DNA of 64,000 nt from Escherichia coli (lineage in GTDB: Bacteria; Pseudomonadota; Gammaproteobacteria; Enterobacterales; Enterobacteriaceae), in NCBI RefSeq assembly GCF_003334405.1, contig NZ_QOWM01000003.1. The stretch is one strand, 5' to 3'. Numbering within the stretch: the stretch's first letter is position 1; each line of letters starts with the position of its first letter. The notes beneath the pieces were generated by a model. That model saw only the letters and a program-made list of their open reading frames with translations. It searched no databases and was not told the origin of the DNA. Below, piece by piece: positions 1 to 7,842 of the stretch. Made by a program: the position numbers and the translations under genes.

Positions 1-1315
1 GACCGTTCACCTTAATTGGGTGATCTGCCGTCTCGCCAGTTTCATTATCGCTATTGTGATGCTGATTGCCGCCAGTGTTCTCCTTGTGTGGATGTTCAGC
101 GCCTTCCATTTCCTCCGGATCATCTTCCTGAACTTCAACCTGATACTCTTCATCGAATGTTTCTTGGTATGTTGCGTCGCCCATCACCGCGCCACAATCA
201 GGGCAGTTGCCGCCGCCGGTCTGACCGCAGGCGGTGCAGACTTTTTCCACTTCCTGTTGCGCTACTGGTTCAGGCTGTTTCGTTTCTGGCTCGTTTTGTA
301 ACGCATTTGGACTGTTTTGTTCCGCTTTTTGGTAGTTCCGTTCCGATTCATGCTGGTTCTGGTTCACAGAATCGCGGGTCTGGAGCCCCTTAACCCATTT
401 CGGATCATTCGGGTCACTAATCCCTTCAACAAATTCACCACGTGATGCAGCAAGCAACTTATCGGCGTCAGGCTGGCTGATATTGGCTGCCTGCATAATT
501 TTGTTTACTTCGTCAGCGGTAACTTTTATCGGCTCTGGTTGTTCTGAATCTTCAGCGGTATCTACATTTTGCGGTAAGCCCGTGTATGTGCCATTTTTTC
601 GGGCAAAATATTCTTCTTTTGTGATTTCAGTGGCGCCAGCAGCCAGTGCCTTATCCAGACCAGAGAGTTTGTTTGCGCGACCGTATTTTTCTCCGTCCTT
701 ATCTGCGAAGAGGAAATAGAACGGCCCCTCACGCTCTACAGATGGTTCAGCTTCCGGCGCGGTTTCATTTTTTGGGATATCAGATACCTCAGTTTCCACT
801 GCATCAGTTTGTGTTTCTGATGACTGGAGAACATCAACAGTGCCCAGGTCTGTTTCTTCATTCTCAAACACGCCCTTTGTCGTCAGGTATTCGCAGATAT
901 ATTTGTTCAGTGCTACGGGATCTTTGTGAATGTCGATCGGACGCTCACGGACAAGGCCAAAAATAGTTTGGCGGTCGTAGCGAAGGGCATCAGGCTGTTT
1001 GCGCATTGATGCCGAGATACGCTTCCAGTCTTCGCGGTCGTTGTCGATAACTTCTTTTTTTGCCCAGCGATGGATGCTGCCGTCAATGTTTCCGGCATCC
1101 ACATCACTAGGCCAGAGAGCGTAGGCCAGTTCGTCATCCAGTGTTTTCCATGTCTGCTTGTATTCGCGATGAATGGCAGCAATGACCGGGCTGATTTTTC
1201 CTGTTGAATTTTCAGTGTACTGTTGATTGGCTCTGGCGCGGGCGAGATCAACAACAGACGTGTATTTTCCGGTTTCCTTGCGTTCACCTTCGCGACGTTT
1301 TTTCCAGATGCGCAT
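1..1315 (-). CDS. large acidic phage early-region protein, 3'-partial (runs off window start); identity unresolved
   Basis: Hand translation of the minus strand gives an uninterrupted frame from ATG at 1315-1313 to position 1 (over 430 codons). N-terminal part is basic, then a long Glu/Asp/Gln/Pro-rich low-complexity stretch and a CxxC-N7-CxxC zinc-ribbon motif (VCTACGQTGGGNCPDCG). Absent from the ORF track because there is no stop inside the window. Confidence 0.5.
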   Translation of the reverse strand, partial: MRIWKKRREGERKETGKYTSVVDLARARANQQYTENSTGKISPVIAAIHREYKQTWKTLDDELAYALWPSDVDAGNIDGSIHRWAKKEVIDNDREDWKRISASMRKQPDALRYDRQTIFGLVRERPIDIHKDPVALNKYICEYLTTKGVFENEETDLGTVDVLQSSETQTDAVETEVSDIPKNETAPEAEPSVEREGPFYFLFADKDGEKYGRANKLSGLDKALAAGATEITKEEYFARKNGTYTGLPQNVDTAEDSEQPEPIKVTADEVNKIMQAANISQPDADKLLAASRGEFVEGISDPNDPKWVKGLQTRDSVNQNQHESERNYQKAEQNSPNALQNEPETKQPEPVAQQEVEKVCTACGQTGGGNCPDCGAVMGDATYQETFDEEYQVEVQEDDPEEMEGAEHPHKENTGGNQHHNSDNETGETADHPIKVNG

Positions 1316-1373
1316 CTCTGCCTGAATTTCGGGCCATTTAGCACCAGGAATACATTTATGCTTAACCCACCCA

Positions 1374-1640
1374 ATGGCGTGCAACTTAAGCTCCGGATAC
1401 GGGTTATTCCCCTCTGAACAGGCGCGTAAGGACTGGCAAAACGCCCGCAAAAAACTCTCGAGGGCAAAGGTGAAGAAACCTGCTGTGGTTGATCCGGACC
1501 TTATCTGGTCATCACCTGACGGAGAAATACGTCGCTACGACAGTCGCCTAAACATAATCTGTCGCGAGTGCCGGAAGAGCGAAGTTATGCAGCGCATACT
1601 GGCTTTCTATCAGGGTAATTTTCAGGACGTGGCGCAGTGA
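1374..1640 (+). CDS. hypothetical phage protein (88 aa)
   Basis: ORF-track ORF; its stop overlaps the GTG start of the downstream methyltransferase-like ORF. No recognisable motif. Confidence 0.3.
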   Translation: MACNLSSGYGLFPSEQARKDWQNARKKLSRAKVKKPAVVDPDLIWSSPDGEIRRYDSRLNIICRECRKSEVMQRILAFYQGNFQDVAQ

Positions 1641-1993
1641 GTGCACCGGCAACCATTCTTGATATGTGCTGTGGCAGCCGCATGTTCTGGTTCGATAAGT
1701 CTGACGAACGGGCGATATTCAGCGATATCAGAAAAGAAGGATACACATTACGCAATGGGAGACGCTTGATTATCAGCCCTGACATTATCGCAGATTTTCG
1801 TGCATTATCATTTGCAGACGCATCTTTTTCGATGGTTGTATTAGACCCTCCGCATCTTGAGAGTGTTGGTGATAACGCCTGGATGGGAAAGAAATATGGA
1901 CGGCTGAATAAAGATGCCTGGCGTGATGATTCGCGACAGAGATTTAAAGAAGCCTTTCGGGTGTTGAGGCCGCACGGCGTTCTGATTTTTTAA
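1637..1993 (+). CDS. putative SAM-dependent methyltransferase, probably C-terminally truncated
   Basis: 118-aa ORF with DMCCGS (motif I-like) and VLDPPH (motif IV-like, DPPY class). Too short for a complete methyltransferase and followed by decayed sequence. Confidence 0.45.
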   Translation: MSAPATILDMCCGSRMFWFDKSDERAIFSDIRKEGYTLRNGRRLIISPDIIADFRALSFADASFSMVVLDPPHLESVGDNAWMGKKYGRLNKDAWRDDSRQRFKEAFRVLRPHGVLIF

Positions 1994-2255
1994 TGGAATG
2001 AAACGCAAATACCGGTAAGCCAGATTCTGGCACTGACAGACAGAAAACCTGTTATCTGTCAACGAACAGGGAAAAAACGATAAAACCCACTGGATTATTT
2101 TTATGAAAGAGGCATCCAGTGAGTAGATTCGTAAGGCTACAGATACGTATATCTGAATAATTAAATTCAGTTCTGTAAATAAAATTTAATCCTTAACCGG
2201 ATGGATTTCTGCACCCTCAGAACATCAGGAGGCCGCCCGAAAGGGCGGTAGTGAA

Positions 2256-2366
2256 ATGCGAAAGTTCAAAATTATTATTGAAACGGGAATAGCTGGTGGA
2301 GATTTTGAGGATGTATTCGAAGTGGACGATGACGCAACACCTGAGGAAATTCATGACGGAGCATAA
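2256..2366 (+). CDS. small acidic hypothetical protein (36 aa)
   Basis: ATG preceded by AGGAGG (2227-2232) and a GC hairpin with GAAA loop (2233-2248). Below the ORF-track length cut-off. Confidence 0.25.
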   Translation: MRKFKIIIETGIAGGDFEDVFEVDDDATPEEIHDGA

Positions 2367-2603
2367 GAAATTTTCTTTAACTACTGCAATTACTCATACC
2401 ACGAAATAAAAGACGATGAGGAAGAACAAAGTGGCTGATTTTTGTTCAGCTAAATATAACATCAGTTTTGAAGAGCGGGATGAACTATTAATGGACTATG
2501 GTGAGTTACGCGGTGGAAGTGCTGCTGATGTCGAATCCTAGCGTGATGACTATGAAGCGGGAAAAACTCCGGTCGAAGCATATTGTGATGAGTGGGGCGA
2601 TGA

Positions 2604-2891
2604 ATGAGCGAGATTAATTATCAGGAAGGGCATGAAACGGCGGGGCAAGCAAAACCAGTGGCATGGCGATATCGCTACGTGAAAAAAGGCGTTACGGACT
2701 TTCAGGGGAAGTAGTGGTCTGGTGACTGGAAATATGTACCGAAAAAAGAGGATTGTAACGACAGGCCGAACTATCAAATTCAGGCCTTATTCACTGCCTC
2801 ACCAGTCCCAGTTACATCAGAAGAACTGGTTAAAGCTGTGCACTTTTATGAACAACTAAAACGCGAAAATCCACCAACATCCGGCAACTAG
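2604..2891 (+). pseudogene. hypothetical protein ORF interrupted by an in-frame TAG at 2712-2714
   Basis: Same reading frame is protein-like on both sides of the TAG (MSEINYQEGHETAGQAKPVAWRYRYVKKGVTDFQGK / WSGDWKYVPKKEDCNDRPNYQIQALFTASPVPVTSEELVKAVHFYEQLKRENPPTSGN). Confidence 0.35.
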
Positions 2892-3145
2892 ATTAATGGA
2901 TTAACTATGTCGGTTAAACGACCAGCCAACTGAAAAAGCGGAAACCTGATTACAGGTTGCCAGATAAGGCAATGAGCTACCTGGCGCGGAACGGACTGAT
3001 AAGTATGGGGAATGTTTTACGATGAACCTTTAGACTAAAGAGTTTGTAACGCTATGTAAGTGATTTTTTCTGGTTTAGATATTTATATGTCCGGCCAAAT
3101 TGAGGTGTGTTTAAATGTAATTGCACATTGATTGTAGGAGGAATA

Positions 3146-3325
3146 ATGAAAAACGCATTGCAGTTTTTGTTTGTTGCGTTCTGGTTGTTCGCATCATGTA
3201 TGCCCATCATCTTCACAGCAAGGTATATGGAAAAAGTTGATGTTTTGATATTAATATTTGGATATATAAATGCCCTTTTTTTAGGGGTGTTCATGGCGGT
3301 CATGTGCATTGAATACTGGCGGTAA
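3146..3325 (+). CDS. small hydrophobic membrane protein (59 aa, two predicted TM helices)
   Basis: ATG at 3146 with consensus AGGAGG 5 nt upstream. Sequence MKNALQFLFVAFWLFASCMPIIFTARYMEKVDVLILIFGYINALFLGVFMAVMCIEYWR. Sits in an AT-rich stretch. Confidence 0.45.
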   Translation: MKNALQFLFVAFWLFASCMPIIFTARYMEKVDVLILIFGYINALFLGVFMAVMCIEYWR

Positions 3326-3559
3326 ATACAGCGAACTCCATTGGTTTAGTTGGATATTTACTGTGCTGGACAAAAACGGTTTGCGGGGAAATCTTAGTTA
3401 AGTAGAATGACTGCGGGTGCTTGAGGCTATCTGCCTCGGGCATGGACACCAACGGCAGATAGAGAAAAGCCCCAGTTAACATTACGCGTCCTGCAAGACG
3501 CTTAACATTAATCTGAGGCCAATTTCATGCTAGACACATGTAGGTTAGCCTCTTACGTG

Positions 3560-5200
3560 CCGAAAGGCACGGAGAAGCAGGCTATTGTTAACACCAAGCT
3601 GTAATGTCCCCTTTGAACCATTCTAAAATGTCCCCAGACAATTCTCTGGGGGATTTTTCATGATCAAAGAGACTGTTACGATGAGTCATAAGGAACTCCA
3701 CCGACTTCAGATTATTCAGGAACAAGCTGCGGCACGCATTGGCATTTCTATTCGGCAGGTTAAACGTCTGGTGCAACGGTATAGAAATGAAGGGCCTTCT
3801 GGTCTGGTTTCCCACCGACGTGGAAAGCGTCCTAATAATTCCTTTTCTACTGAATTCAGAGCAACAGTAATTTCACTCCTCAAAGGCCGTTACGCTGATT
3901 TTGGACCTACGTTTGCGTGCGAAAAATTGCGCGAGATACACGGTTTATCTTTATCCGTTGAAACTCTCAGAAAGTGGATGATAGAAGAGGGGTTATGGCG
4001 TGAACGCCGTCGTAAAATTGCCCGTATATATCAACGCCGCATGCGACGACCATCTTACGGTGAACTGATCCAGATTGATGGCTCACCTCATGACTGGTTT
4101 GAAAATCGAGGCCCCAGATGTACACTGATCGTTTTCATTGATGATGCCACCAGTGCGTTGATGGCGTTGCGTTTTGTGCCTGCTGAAACAACCCGGGCTT
4201 ACATGGAAACCCTCCGGGGTTACCTTAATGATCATGGCGTACCGCTCGCTCTCTACTCTGATAGACACAGTATATTCAGGGTAAATAACCCAGAGCGGGA
4301 AGGTGAGCTGACCCAGTTCACTCGTGCGATAAAGACACTGGGCATCGAGCCAATCCATGCCAACAGCCCGCAGGCAAAAGGGCGGGTAGAGCGCGCCAAT
4401 CAGACACTACAGGACAGGCTGGTCAAAGAAATGCGGCTTCAGAATATCAGTGATATTGAAACAGCAAATGCATGGTTGCCGACCTTTATTGAAGCCTATA
4501 ACAACCGGTTCGCTACGTCGCCTCGTACTACTGATAATGCTCATCTTGATGTGCACCATTCTGAAGAGGAACTGGGTTATATCTTCAGCCTACAGGCGAA
4601 GCGCGTTCTGTCTAAAAATCTCACTTTCCAGTACAAAAGCAGTGCGTTTCAGGTACGCAGTGAGGGCCGGGGATATCGACTTAGGCATTCGGTTGTTACT
4701 GTATGCGAGAACTTTGACGGTGAAATTAACGTTCTGTATGACGGGAAAGCGCTGGGCTGGGAAAAGTATGTTGATGGCCCGGAGCCTATACCACTGGATG
4801 ATGAAAAGAGTGTCCATGAACGAGTGGATAATGCCCGTATTGATTTACGCTCAAAATACTATGTTAAACCTAAAGCTGACCATCCCTGGCTTACGCGCCG
4901 AACGCAAAGTCATCAGCAAGTTAAGCCCCCGAAGTTACCTAAAAAGAAGCCTGATCCCGATAAAAAAGATTGAAACCAAGATCGATTCGGTTGAGTGCAT
5001 ATCCATTCATAGGGTAGATTCTTAAGTCGCGTTTCTGGTGTTCATTTTCGGGTGGTTTGTTACTTGTTTTACCGGGGATATGCCAGAAACGCGCTGAGTC
5101 AGTCTGGGCGGTGCGCGTAATGAGGCGTTATGGTAAATAGCCTATGCTAATGTCCGCTAAGAGCAAGAAGCGGAAGTTGGCAGTTTTGTGGACTGTCCCC
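3560..5200 (+). mobile_element. insertion sequence carrying the DDE transposase; ends not resolved
   Basis: Single transposase ORF flanked by non-coding sequence. I could not find clean terminal inverted repeats or a target-site duplication by eye, so boundaries are approximate. Confidence 0.45.
3660..4973 (+). CDS. DDE transposase with N-terminal HTH and rve/integrase-core domain (ISNCY/IS1202-like or IS481-like)
   Basis: 437 aa. N-terminal HTH (IGISIRQVKRLVQRY), then D (QIDGSPHDW), D (LYSDRHS) and E (RVERANQT) in integrase-core spacing. Basic C-terminal tail. Confidence 0.8.
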   Translation: MIKETVTMSHKELHRLQIIQEQAAARIGISIRQVKRLVQRYRNEGPSGLVSHRRGKRPNNSFSTEFRATVISLLKGRYADFGPTFACEKLREIHGLSLSVETLRKWMIEEGLWRERRRKIARIYQRRMRRPSYGELIQIDGSPHDWFENRGPRCTLIVFIDDATSALMALRFVPAETTRAYMETLRGYLNDHGVPLALYSDRHSIFRVNNPEREGELTQFTRAIKTLGIEPIHANSPQAKGRVERANQTLQDRLVKEMRLQNISDIETANAWLPTFIEAYNNRFATSPRTTDNAHLDVHHSEEELGYIFSLQAKRVLSKNLTFQYKSSAFQVRSEGRGYRLRHSVVTVCENFDGEINVLYDGKALGWEKYVDGPEPIPLDDEKSVHERVDNARIDLRSKYYVKPKADHPWLTRRTQSHQQVKPPKLPKKKPDPDKKD

Positions 5201-5409
5201 ACAAAAGTGACTACAGAAATAGTTGCAATTCATAATTGATCATGGGTTGTCAGTTAAACTCGTGGCGATTTAAATAGACTAATTGGGAGTGCGTCCATTA
5301 CTTATATCTTGTAATGTTAACTATCAGAAATGATACAAAGATAATATGTCTTTAAAGAAAAGGCTGATGGCGAAAAGTGGCCCGATGAGGGCCACAATAC
5401 GGCTGTCAC

Positions 5410-5742
5410 TTAGACGTAAATATCAATGGTGCCAGCGGTATTTGTATCGTCTTTTTTCTCTTCTTTTTTATCAGGCTGAACTGTCGCGTCTTCATTCTTT
5501 TTCTCTGCCTGCTGCCTTAACAACTGCTCCAGTTGAGCCCAGAGGCTTTCAATTTGCTTCTGTACCAATGCAGCCATTTCTTTTTTCTGCTGTGTCGTCA
5601 TCCCCTCTTCCGATGAGATTTTCCCAAGCTTTTCAGTCAGCACCTGAATTTGTCTTGTGATTTTGGCTATTTCTGATGTTCCTTCCGGGGCGGAGTTGTT
5701 TGAAATAACGGTTGAGGTATTTCCCTGAATTGTGACAGACAT
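5410..5742 (-). CDS. flxA: FlxA-like protein
   Basis: 110-aa protein recognised as Qin-prophage FlxA; AAGGAG RBS; sigma28-type promoter upstream. Confidence 0.85.
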   Translation of the reverse strand: MSVTIQGNTSTVISNNSAPEGTSEIAKITRQIQVLTEKLGKISSEEGMTTQQKKEMAALVQKQIESLWAQLEQLLRQQAEKKNEDATVQPDKKEEKKDDTNTAGTIDIYV

Positions 5743-5765
5743 AGATTTCTCCTTTTAAAAAAGCA

Positions 5766-5792
5766 CTATCGGCATGCACAAAAAAATCTTTA
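5766..5792 (-). promoter_or_regulatory. sigma28 (FliA) class-3 promoter of flxA
   Basis: On the minus strand TAAAGATT-N11-GCCGATAG, matching consensus TAAAGTTT-N11-GCCGATAA, about 25 nt upstream of the flxA start. Confidence 0.6.
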
Positions 5793-5944
5793 ATCGTATT
5801 TCTTGTGTCATTAATTGTTTGATGTTCAGATTGTTTTCCTCGCGGGCTGGCGCGCCTCAGAAAGTAAAGCTTGTTGACAGGGGTAAACGTTCGGCAATAA
5901 TTTTCTGCCGCATGCGGGTGTTGCATAAAACGTGTTACGTTCCT

Positions 5945-6250
5945 TTATCGACAGGTCAGGTCACCGCTCACCCGCCGACGAGAAAGCAACACTGACATGC
6001 TAAAGCAAAAAATAGATGAATAAGTTGAGTTGTGCATATGTAGCCTGACCGTCACAAAGTATATGGTGTCTGTACCAGTAAGATGATGGCCGGACTCTTT
6101 AAAAACGAGCTGACCTGCACAATACAGGATGGACTTAGCAATGGCTGCTCCTGGCACAAAGCGGACAGTGATCACCGTTCTTACGACTACTTTCTGACTT
6201 CCTTCGTGACTTGCCCTAAGCATGTTGTAGTGCGATACTTGTAATGACAT
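5945..6250 (-). CDS. ydfV: YdfV-like hypothetical protein
   Basis: 101-aa ORF positioned between flxA and relB as in Qin. Its 5' end lies over the relBE operator on the opposite strand, so coding status is uncertain. Confidence 0.5.
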   Translation of the reverse strand: MSLQVSHYNMLRASHEGSQKVVVRTVITVRFVPGAAIAKSILYCAGQLVFKESGHHLTGTDTIYFVTVRLHMHNSTYSSIFCFSMSVLLSRRRVSGDLTCR

Positions 6251-6266
6251 TTGTAATTACAAGAGG
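6236..6266 (+). promoter_or_regulatory. relBE operator/promoter (relO-like TTGTAAT repeats)
   Basis: TTGTAATGACATTTGTAATTACAAG with a TTGTAATTACAA palindrome immediately upstream of relB. Confidence 0.55.
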
Positions 6267-6274
6267 TGTAAGAC

Positions 6275-6514
6275 ATGGGTAGCATTAACCTGCGTATTGA
6301 CGATGAACTTAAAGCGCGTTCTTACGCCGCGCTTGAAAAAATGGGTGTAACTCCTTCTGAAGCGCTTCGTCTCATGCTCGAGTATATCGCTGACAATGAA
6401 CGCTTGCCGTTCAAACAGACACTCCTGAGTGATGAAGATGCTGAACTTGTGGAGATAGTGAAAGAACGGCTTCGTAATCCTAAGCCAGTACGTGTGACGC
6501 TGGATGAACTCTGA
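6275..6514 (+). CDS. relB: RelB antitoxin
   Basis: 79 aa, recognised as RelB; stop overlaps relE start (ATGA coupling). Confidence 0.9.
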   Translation: MGSINLRIDDELKARSYAALEKMGVTPSEALRLMLEYIADNERLPFKQTLLSDEDAELVEIVKERLRNPKPVRVTLDEL

Positions 6515-6801
6515 TGGCGTATTTTCTGGATTTTGACGAGCGGGCACTAAAGGAATGGCGAAAGCTGGGCTCGACGGTACGTGAACAGTTGAAAAAGAAG
6601 CTGGTTGAAGTACTTGAGTCACCCCGGATTGAAGCAAACAAGCTCCGTGGTATGCCTGATTGTTACAAGATTAAGCTCCGGTCTTCAGGCTATCGCCTTG
6701 TATACCAGGTTATAGACGAGAAAGTTGTCGTTTTCGTGATTTCTGTTGGGAAAAGAGAACGCTCGGAAGTATATAGCGAGGCGGTCAAACGCATTCTCTG
6801 A
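6514..6801 (+). CDS. relE: RelE mRNA interferase toxin
   Basis: 95 aa, recognised as RelE. Confidence 0.9.
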   Translation: MAYFLDFDERALKEWRKLGSTVREQLKKKLVEVLESPRIEANKLRGMPDCYKIKLRSSGYRLVYQVIDEKVVVFVISVGKRERSEVYSEAVKRIL

Positions 6802-6872
6802 ACCAAAGCATGACATCTCTGTTTCGCACCGAAGGTGACACTTCTGCTTTGCGTTGACAGGAGAAGCAGGCT

Positions 6873-7028
6873 ATGAAGCAGCAAAAGGCGATGTTAATCG
6901 CCCTGATCGTCATCTGTTTAACCGTCATAGTGACGGCACTGGTAACGAGGAAAGACCTCTGCGAGGTACGAATCCGAACCGGCCAGACGGAGGTCGCTGT
7001 CTTCACAGCTTACGAACCTGAGGAGTAA
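6873..7028 (+). CDS. hokD: Hok-family small membrane toxin
   Basis: 51 aa MKQQKAMLIALIVICLTVIVTALVTRKDLCEVRIRTGQTEVAVFTAYEPEE; below ORF-track cut-off, found by hand translation downstream of relE. Confidence 0.8.
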   Translation: MKQQKAMLIALIVICLTVIVTALVTRKDLCEVRIRTGQTEVAVFTAYEPEE

Positions 7029-7244
7029 GAGACCCGGCGGGGGAGAAATCCCTCGCCACCTCTGATGTGGCAGGCATCCTCAACGCACCCGCACTTAACC
7101 CGCTTCGGCGGGTTTTTGTTTTTATTTTCAACGCGTTTGAAGTTCTGGACGGTGCCGGAATAGAATCAAAAATACTTAAGTAGCGCGCAGGGATAAGAGG
7201 GATGGTCCCTTAAAGGGGAGAGCTAATTATCCGGAAGGATTCTG

Positions 7245-7496
7245 ATGATGAACATCGAAGAACTGCGTAAAATTTTTTGTGAAGATGGCCTCTATGCTGT
7301 GTGCGTTGAAAATGGAAATCTTGTTAGTCATTACCGCATTATGTGTTTGCGAAAGAATGGGGCTGCGTTAATTAATTTTGTGGATGCTCGGGTCACGGAC
7401 GGATTTATCTTGCGCGAAGGTGAGTTTGTCACTTCATTACAGGCATTGAAAGAGATCGGAATAAAAGCTGGCTTTTCTGCTTTTTCAGGAGAATAA
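7245..7496 (+). CDS. rem: Rem-like protein
   Basis: 83-aa ORF at the Qin rem position. Confidence 0.7.
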   Translation: MMNIEELRKIFCEDGLYAVCVENGNLVSHYRIMCLRKNGAALINFVDARVTDGFILREGEFVTSLQALKEIGIKAGFSAFSGE

Positions 7497-7562
7497 ACTC
7501 ATCTACAATCTTGCGCGGGGCTGAACTCCCGCTGAGTAACACCGTGCCACCGGAGAAAACCG

Positions 7563-7841
7563 ATGGCACGCAACGCAAAATATTACAATTCTGATAATTC
7601 GCCCGTTCTTGCCTGCACGCACGGGCGGTATTCTCACGCATTCAAGTCTGAATGGTTCCAGCACCCTCCATGCACTGCAGAACAGGCCGAATGGCTGATT
7701 CATTCTTACCGCAGGCGCGGGTTCGAGGTTAAGAAAGCTCTCAGTCTCGACTATCGGCACTGGATAATCTCTGTCAGGCTGCCTTATTCCGAACGCCCAC
7801 CACGTGCGTCCCGCACTTTCCAGCAACGGATCTGGAGGTAA
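7563..7841 (+). CDS. hypothetical protein (92 aa) upstream of ydfU
   Basis: ATG with GGAGAA RBS; ends 1 nt before the likely GTG start of ydfU. Confidence 0.5.
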   Translation: MARNAKYYNSDNSPVLACTHGRYSHAFKSEWFQHPPCTAEQAEWLIHSYRRRGFEVKKALSLDYRHWIISVRLPYSERPPRASRTFQQRIWR

Positions 7842-7842
7842 C

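Follow-up and report, generated by a model that had tools for sequence, protein, structure and literature searches.

Decayed accessory genes of a Qin-family prophage in Escherichia coli, and a relBE-carrying IS1202-family transposon at the hok start codon

The window, a stretch of 64,000 nucleotides (nt) of Escherichia coli DNA (contig NZ_QOWM01000003.1, assembly GCF_003334405.1), carries towards its left end a run of broken accessory genes belonging to a lambdoid prophage, followed by the orphaned leader of a hok/mok/sok locus and by a transposon of the IS1202/ISEsa1 family that has the relBE toxin-antitoxin genes as cargo. All coordinates are window positions, and the stretch under study is window 1391-3585; its features and those of its surroundings are collected in Table 1. 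A preliminary description of this DNA, made from the sequence alone, had proposed a decayed gene cluster consisting of a truncated methyltransferase-like open reading frame (ORF) and a small gene broken by one stop codon. The 118-amino-acid (aa) ORF at 1637..1993 and the ORF at 2604..2891 with its single TAG at 2712-2714 were found exactly as given there, and the decay itself is borne out by stops and a frameshift standing opposite sense codons of intact phage genes. To these can be added further stops at 2364 and 2539, the frameshift in the methyltransferase gene and the hok/sok leader at 3415-3585.

Compared with the intact Stx2c phage gene, the methyltransferase gene carries two lesions. 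An AAA (Lys) codon has become TAA at 1991, so that the ORF comprises 118 codons and stops at codon 119 (TAA at 1991-1993), and one nucleotide has been gained in a run of A at about 2071-2076, which shifts the frame. As read from the translation, the S-adenosylmethionine (SAM)-binding motif I is kept as DMCCGS at residues 9-14 and the catalytic (D/N/S)PP(Y/F/W/H) motif IV as DPPH at residues 70-73, while the conserved C-terminal 44 residues are cut off. Intact homologues measure 155-169 aa rather than 118, so the ORF is short of full length, and the proposed truncation was confirmed by this comparison. When both the stop and the frameshift were mended, the resulting 162-aa product matched phrog_954 end to end (6.7e-80), the PADLOC profile MTase_II (PDLC03288) over positions 3-163 of 169 (1.8e-66) and the PADLOC profile oMTase (PDLC03730; 3.4e-45); these full-length matches hold only after the mending. 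At least 80% of the repaired protein is covered by 244 phage records, and its identity is 83% to the intact Stx2c-phage gene and 57-59% to genes of actinophages. Pfam returned only weak matches to the repaired protein (N6_N4_Mtase, E 0.025), a PDB sequence search with it found no relative, and NCBIfam gave no match for the methyltransferase. The window gene is therefore like the phrog_954, MTase_II and oMTase proteins in its SAM-binding motif and DPPH and, once repaired, in its end-to-end profile match, but differs from them in a frame broken by a TAA and a frameshift and in having no cognate restriction enzyme nearby in the window. By its profile matches, the gene belongs to a family of small enzymes that is widespread in phages and is placed among REBASE-derived Type II and orphan profiles, and it is reasonable to suppose that the ancestral enzyme would have shielded phage DNA from restriction.

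Downstream of the methyltransferase lie three small genes, all encoding acidic proteins and each interrupted at codon 37. In the DUF7167 gene, TAA (2364-2366) stands where intact copies carry AAA (Lys); in the 58-codon gene, TAG (2539-2541) stands where intact copies carry TGG (Trp), and the start has also changed from ATG to GTG. In the phrog_660-family gene the TAG at 2712-2714 is the only in-frame stop, and the codon opposite it in phage homologues encodes Gln, Pro or Leu (Gln in the closest intact copy). The nonsense mutation suggested by the preliminary description at this position was upheld by tblastn, in which phage homologues span the TAG without interruption: the joined 95-aa translation aligns in single pieces over the stop (vB_EcoS-689R5, 84%, E 1e-47), and it matches phrog_660 over residues 2-93, again spanning the stop (E 8.8e-29). 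Intact references for this gene were vB_EcoS-689R5, mEp460 and Av-05. Phage vB_EcoS-640R1 (ON470612, L003) was rejected as such a reference because it has the same TAG together with a +2 shift in an A-run, though it can serve for the DUF7167 and 58-codon genes; the 'hypothetical protein' of 85 aa at its positions 3605..3862 is an annotation artefact, the second half being read out of frame. Past about 2877 the conserved C-terminus (VETGAWKDAVDWVLKEA...) of the phrog_660 gene is lost. Homology to vB_EcoS-689R5 (L004) ends at 2876; from 2921 it restarts, now with the 3' end of a gene that lies 1.2 kb farther on in the phage, where window 2921-3025 matches positions 2982-3086 of that phage at 79% (blastn); the remnant is joined to the phrog_660 gene through a deletion of about 1.2 kb relative to vB_EcoS-689R5. 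NCBIfam gave no match for the three small proteins, and PADLOC no defence-family match for the three small genes. The stops in all three fall at homologous codon 37, 108 nt past the start, with spacings of 175 and 173 nt, and they come from three different changes (A>T, G>A and C>T). We treat the shared codon as coincidence, the odds of which, estimated roughly and post hoc, are about 1 in 1,000.

Table 1. Positions of the decayed genes, the hok leader, the transposon and neighbouring features in the window
Feature	Position	Strand	Basis or remark
DNA methyltransferase pseudogene	1637..2126	+	DNA alignment to intact 164-aa Stx2c phage gene
DUF7167 / phrog_1997 gene, 60 codons	2256..2438	+	PGAP 'DUF7167 family protein, internal stop'
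58-codon gene, resembles C-terminal part of phrog_519	2431..2607	+	Phage homologue comparison
phrog_660-family gene	2604..2891	+	PGAP 'frameshifted; internal stop' for 2605..3026
3' remnant of another accessory gene	2921..3026	+	Homologue of vB_EcoS-689R5 2742..3086
Orphaned 5' leader of hok/mok/sok locus	3415..3585	+	Rfam RF01794 sok, full model
Target-site duplication, 15 bp, GGAGAAGCAGGCTAT	3571..3585 and 6860-6874		Perfect direct repeat
Transposon, 3,274 bp	3586..6859	+	IRL/IRR, target duplication, transposase
IRL (left inverted repeat)	3586-3611		26 bp, TGTTAACACCAAGCTGTAATGTCCCC, begins TGT
Transposase	3660..4973	+	NF033594 ISNCY
27-bp in-frame deletion site in transposase	3711..3721	+	Comparison with 446-aa copies; overlapping blast pieces
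flxA	5410..5742	-	Transposon cargo
ydfV	5945..6250	-	Transposon cargo
relB	6275..6514	+	Transposon cargo
relE	6514..6801	+	Transposon cargo
IRR (right inverted repeat)	6834-6859		Reverse complement TGTCAACGCAAAGCAGAAGTGTCACC, begins TGT
ydfE-like 3'-5' exoribonuclease-domain pseudogene, N-terminus missing	1..1408	-	Open frame; PGAP (Prokaryotic Genome Annotation Pipeline) 'missing N-terminus' in BUCT2930
Deletion junction, 10-bp overlap	1391..1400		K-12 ydfE match ends 1400; PhiR42_1 match begins 1391
LygF / DUF977 / Ren-like C-terminal fragment	1389..1640	+	PGAP 'DUF977, missing N-terminus'
Hydrophobic ORF, 59 codons (72 from GTG at 3107)	3146..3325	+	AGGAGG ribosome-binding site

The broken genes are part of a prophage that exists in several deletion forms. 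Window 1..7650 is 100% identical to E. coli BUCT2930, where the stretch lies in a prophage adjoining rspB, with int and xis to its left and flxA, ydfV, relBE, hokD and rem to its right; by synteny the prophage is Qin, at the same chromosomal site beside rspB as in K-12. At least 80% of the stretch is carried by 371-377 of 5,426 complete E. coli genomes, most of them at an identity of at least 99%. The Qin prophage of K-12 (b1544-b1579) is 99.99% identical to window 4789-12000 (ydfW, flxA, ydfV, relBE, hokD, rem, ydfU onward). By contrast, it is without window 1401-4788, and thereby without the methyltransferase and the small genes, without the hok leader and without the left two-thirds of the transposase; it keeps the dicB-dicA-dicC immunity region that is gone from this window. 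A phage record from ECOR13, PhiR42_1, of which we found no mention in the literature, is 99.95% identical from 1391 on and has upstream of that point, besides a full lygF, a replication gene and an immunity region of the dicA/dicC type. The form in the window and the form in K-12 are accordingly complementary deletion derivatives of a PhiR42_1-like ancestor. In the window, the deletion at 1391-1400 fuses a 5'-truncated ydfE-like gene on the minus strand, which forms the left flank of the junction, to the middle of lygF; it took away the immunity region (dicB-dicA-dicC) as well as the replication genes. Over window 1122-1400 the identity to a segment of K-12 ydfE is 100%.

The age of the lesions can be bracketed by comparison among these forms. 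Five versions of the region have all four stops in common, along with the GTG start and the frameshift of the methyltransferase gene: the window, PhiR42_1, the chromosomal Qin variants CP062883 and CP172152 (about 1% divergent, with different large deletions) and a metagenomic variant with an undeleted transposase. The lesions are therefore older than the split of the lineages and than the large deletions. Phage vB_EcoS-640R1, although just 92-96% identical, also carries the TAG at 2712, together with a +2 frameshift of its own. Measured against intact relatives, the ratio of nonsynonymous to synonymous divergence (pN/pS) is 0.15-0.27, with pS at about 0.3, which indicates that the divergence was mostly built up under purifying selection and that inactivation came late on that scale. 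The mutation at 2712, which had been called recent, is so in a relative sense: it is late by pN/pS, but it is common to Qin lineages about 1% apart and shared with a phage of 92-96% identity. Two metagenome contigs (L030 and L055) hold Qin variants without an equivalent of window 1585-3556; there, the deletion runs between 10-nt near-repeats, gtgccgGaag in lygF and gtgccgAaag in the hok leader hairpin, and brings lygF directly to the transposon target site. Since the stretch is gone from K-12 as well as from these two variants, it is dispensable. Within 1300-3700, the number of promoter-like sites was what chance would give (4 found, 4.6 expected), and the 6 terminator-like sites found (1.9 expected) included none placed so as to alter the interpretation.

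At the right end of the stretch, the hok leader matches the sok model at 104 bits (gathering score 59), and the match ends at the transposon end. The mok start lies at 3527, and the mok frame enters the transposon after 20 codons, while the hok frame is displaced by 3.27 kb to 6873..7028 (hokD), now downstream of relBE; the contiguity on which mok-hok coupling depends is broken by the 3,274-bp insert. In vB_EcoS-640R1 the hok locus is contiguous and matches window 2939-3585 and 6859-7123, with 15-16 nt counted twice. Window 3415-3585 is 91-93% identical to the hok/sok loci of the Stx phages 933W and VT2-Sakai (hokW/sokW), but differs from hok/sok systems in that the hok coding sequence stands 3.27 kb from its leader, and the locus as read here is predicted to be unable to act as a Sok-controlled post-segregational killing unit. 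The 5' regulatory half that is absent from K-12 hokD (the leader, the mok start and the Sok-complementary region) thus survives in the window 3.3 kb upstream of hokD, K-12 having lost the hok leader together with window 1401-4788. Insertion of the transposon explains the leaderless hokD of K-12. Integration of relBE into hokD, with shortening of the latter, was already noted in PMC6379469, which cites Ramisetty & Santhosh 2016; transposition with a visible target duplication supplies a concrete mechanism for the presence of relBE ahead of a leaderless hokD. Just downstream of hokD, window 7037-7118 gives a sub-threshold match to Rfam isrK (25 bits, gathering score 50) that ends in a terminator-like hairpin; this is probably the hok 3' terminator only.

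The transposon has the hallmarks of the IS1202 family of insertion sequences (ISs), for which terminal repeats are specified as imperfect, about 24-27 bp long and beginning 5'-TGT (PMC10132070; 10.1101/2022.12.17.520857). Its own two repeats match at 19 of 26 positions. The duplication GGAGAAGCAGGCTAT spans the hok Shine-Dalgarno sequence to the start codon and is present as a single copy in the uninterrupted hok of vB_EcoS-640R1. The transposase matches NF033594 at 7.3e-137 (456 bits, cutoff 250), and its length of 437 aa in the window and 446 aa in other copies lies within the 400-500 aa of DDE transposases of the ISNCY/IS1202 type; on plasmid copies it is named by PGAP 'IS1202-like element ISEsa1 family', and K-12 ydfW is the C-terminal remnant of it. 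The shorter length in the window results from a deletion between 11-bp direct repeats that removes nine residues, ESINRHITQ, from the N-terminal DNA-binding region, whereas the full 446 aa are found in the plasmid copies, such as that on Salmonella plasmid pSA20064858.1, and in one metagenomic Qin variant (L040). Judged from this loss, the window transposase is probably inactive.

With 3,274 bp and four passenger genes, the element exceeds a simple IS, which measures 1.3-2.0 kb and has the transposase as its sole gene; it is a transporter IS or unit transposon. Relatives of 3,301, 4,155, 4,237, 4,600 and more than 12,500 bp were found, and the element consists of a core of about 1.6 kb and a right-end relBE-IRR module, both conserved, with cargo that varies from copy to copy. 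Copies on plasmids of other enterobacteria are likewise bounded by duplications: TGGAGGGGCTATGAT on a Salmonella IncI plasmid, GGAGAAGAAGGCCAT on Enterobacter IncF plasmids, and one of 16 bp on a Citrobacter IncFIB plasmid, where the element has different cargo and a length of 4,155 bp. The duplication is 15 bp long in the window and in copies L007 and L008 and 16 bp long in L019, L025 and L026, and its sequence differs between sites. In one plasmid (L020, positions 1887-1953) and one metagenome contig (L044), the ends of the element abut with exactly 15 bp between them (IRR-GGAGAAGAAGGCCTG-IRL), as expected for a second copy in the regenerated target or for a tandem or circle-junction form. 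The copy in Enterobacter sp. Ag1 (L012) was considered as a 1.6-kb IS without target duplication, and this was rejected because the same 'flank' is cargo in other copies.

A scan for the left end in genome and metagenome contigs gave about 28 distinct left flanks, about 22 of which have the hok Shine-Dalgarno motif GGAG 15-16 nt before the element; short flanks were grouped by eye and by a 22-nt key for these counts, and some of the metagenome loci are redundant copies of the Qin insertion. Seven contexts contain a full-length Rfam sok match ending 0-5 nt from the element. Many plasmids and prophages, including those of other enterobacteria, have received the element at the hok start codon through independent insertions.

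Among described elements, ISEsa1 is given by Harmer & Hall 2023 (PMC10132070) as 1609 bp long, without a target duplication found, and is assigned by them to a small, separate subgroup; for the ISTde1 subgroup, Siguier et al. (preprint 10.1101/2022.12.17.520857) describe TGT ends and duplications of 15-17 bp. The window element is like these in its IS1202-type transposase, its 26-bp imperfect TGT repeats and its 15-16 bp duplication. It differs from the 1.6-kb ISEsa1 in that the unit bounded by repeats and duplication extends from 3.3 kb to more than 12 kb, and from both in having relBE always at the right end, variable cargo and a strong preference for the hok translation start. Neither relBE cargo nor hok targeting is stated in PMC10132070 or in preprint 10.1101/2022.12.17.520857. 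We put the chances at about even that these elements make up an undescribed transposon family, marked by an ISEsa1-type core, variable cargo, relBE at the right end, a preference for the hok Shine-Dalgarno sequence and start codon, and a duplication of 15-16 bp. If so, the classical relBE-hokD ('relBEF') operon would be the scar of one such insertion, the lost 5' regulatory half of hokD would survive at window 3415-3585 in non-K-12 strains, and the ISfinder entry for ISEsa1 (1609 bp, 'no TSD', that is, no target-site duplication) may cover no more than the left part of the true element. The arrangement suggests a transposon with one toxin-antitoxin system homing into another, and so bears on the spread of addiction modules and their competition on plasmids. 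The relation of the transposon to hokD is the part of this locus worth specialist attention, and we place it above the decayed cluster in value.

Taken together, the comparisons make us highly confident that window 1391-3585 is an accessory-gene stretch of a vertically inherited Qin-family lambdoid prophage, and that it has become a genetic fossil without present function. The stretch is non-essential and lies between the replication genes and the hok/antiterminator region, and we infer that it is now untranslated and selectively neutral. Four consecutive genes were knocked out by independent small lesions. Point changes made the four stops, AAA turning into TAA twice (A>T), TGG into TAG once (G>A) and CAG into TAG once (C>T); slippage added 1 nt to an A-run, and the last gene lost its C-terminus to an internal deletion. 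A deletion at the 10-bp microhomology of 1391-1400 later cut out the immunity and replication region and truncated lygF. The relBE-carrying IS1202-family transposon entered the hok start codon, parting the hok/sok leader from hok. The cluster is ordinary gene decay, and RefSeq already lists three of its four genes here as pseudogenes. Independently of our reading, PGAP attaches 'internal stop' or 'frameshifted' to the DUF7167 and phrog_660 genes and treats lygF and ydfE as partial, and in sister strains it labels the methyltransferase 'frameshifted; internal stop'.

Some observations sit less easily with a stretch that is wholly without function. In BUCT2930, whose sequence is identical, PGAP sets no flag on the 118-aa methyltransferase ORF; this piece, with motifs I and IV, and the three 36-aa peptides may keep residual transcription or function; the DNA substrate of the methyltransferase family is given by profile names only (PHROG, PADLOC/REBASE); and the ORF at 3146..3325 is intact and unusually conserved, so that the stretch is not uniformly dead. 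As a case of textbook prophage domestication and decay, the cluster matters little in itself. It is useful as a dated record, in which the point lesions precede the split of the Qin lineages and the large deletions of K-12 and the window.

Other explanations of the in-frame stops were also weighed. The preliminary description had left room for an amber-suppressible gene, and more generally the stops might be sites of functional recoding in suppressible or read-through genes that are still expressed; indeed, two of the four stops are TAG, and a codon-37 stop in each of three small genes looks non-random. The other two stops are TAA, however, and damage of other kinds accompanies them, with a frameshift in the methyltransferase, a phrog_660 gene without its C-terminus and a truncated neighbour. 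Intact relatives carry ordinary sense codons at the stop positions, this prophage has lost the early promoter region upstream, and in other lineages the stretch is deleted outright. Wild E. coli is not known to suppress amber or ochre codons efficiently, and we count this, too, against recoding, which we regard as highly improbable; the suppressible-gene proposal falls with it. Sequencing or assembly errors in one genome are refuted as a source of the stops, as 371-377 complete E. coli genomes, a phage record and independent metagenome contigs all show the same bases. Copies of the stretch in many complete E. coli genomes are 100% identical, which a sequencing artefact would not produce.

It is also unlikely, in our view, that the fragments have been co-opted, with the 118-aa stub or the hok leader and Sok region now serving a regulatory role (for example, Sok RNA acting on other hok mRNAs). 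The persistence of the stretch at about 99-100% identity in many lineages, the full-length Rfam sok match and the intact, highly conserved 59-codon ORF next to it would fit such a role. By contrast, the divergence of about 1% between lineages in 1391-2900 is no lower than that of neutral E. coli DNA, and the stretch is deleted in K-12 and other Qin variants. The transposon, moreover, occupies the hok Shine-Dalgarno sequence and start codon, which we take to be the place of the sok promoter by analogy with plasmid R1, and no promoter-like site was found there. Decay without present function remains the reading that we prefer for the stretch as a whole.

The preliminary description had further suggested that the intact ancestor of the cluster was a small protection module. 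This holds for the methyltransferase in so far as it matches REBASE-derived Type II and orphan profiles, but the small genes hit no defence family, and a coherent multi-gene module is not supported, as the small genes and the methyltransferase are not linked elsewhere. In many E. coli only one of the two is present, either the small genes or the methyltransferase, and in vB_EcoS-640R1 the methyltransferase slot holds an unrelated 137-aa gene. Separate inheritance and the absence of a defence match for the small genes argue for a mosaic of accessory genes rather than a coherent protection module.

Two neighbouring features complete the locus. The LygF fragment at its left edge matches only the C-terminal half of the phrog_142 profile (3.2e-20), agrees at 91% identity with the 3' end of the vB_EcoS-640R1 lygF and had no match in NCBIfam or PADLOC. 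The intact ORF at 3146..3325, between the broken genes and the hok leader, has a G+C content of 35%, and no match to it was found in Pfam, NCBIfam or PADLOC; its homologues occur only in E. coli and Shigella. Window 2901-3340 is invariant among Qin lineages that have 14-17 differing sites in the 1.5 kb on its left, and the region of the ORF shows 2 differences in 240 bp from vB_EcoS-640R1, whose flanking genes differ by 6-8%. This conservation suggests either recent horizontal spread or strong selection. In some phage records the opposite strand of this ORF is annotated as 'hornerin', which is probably spurious.

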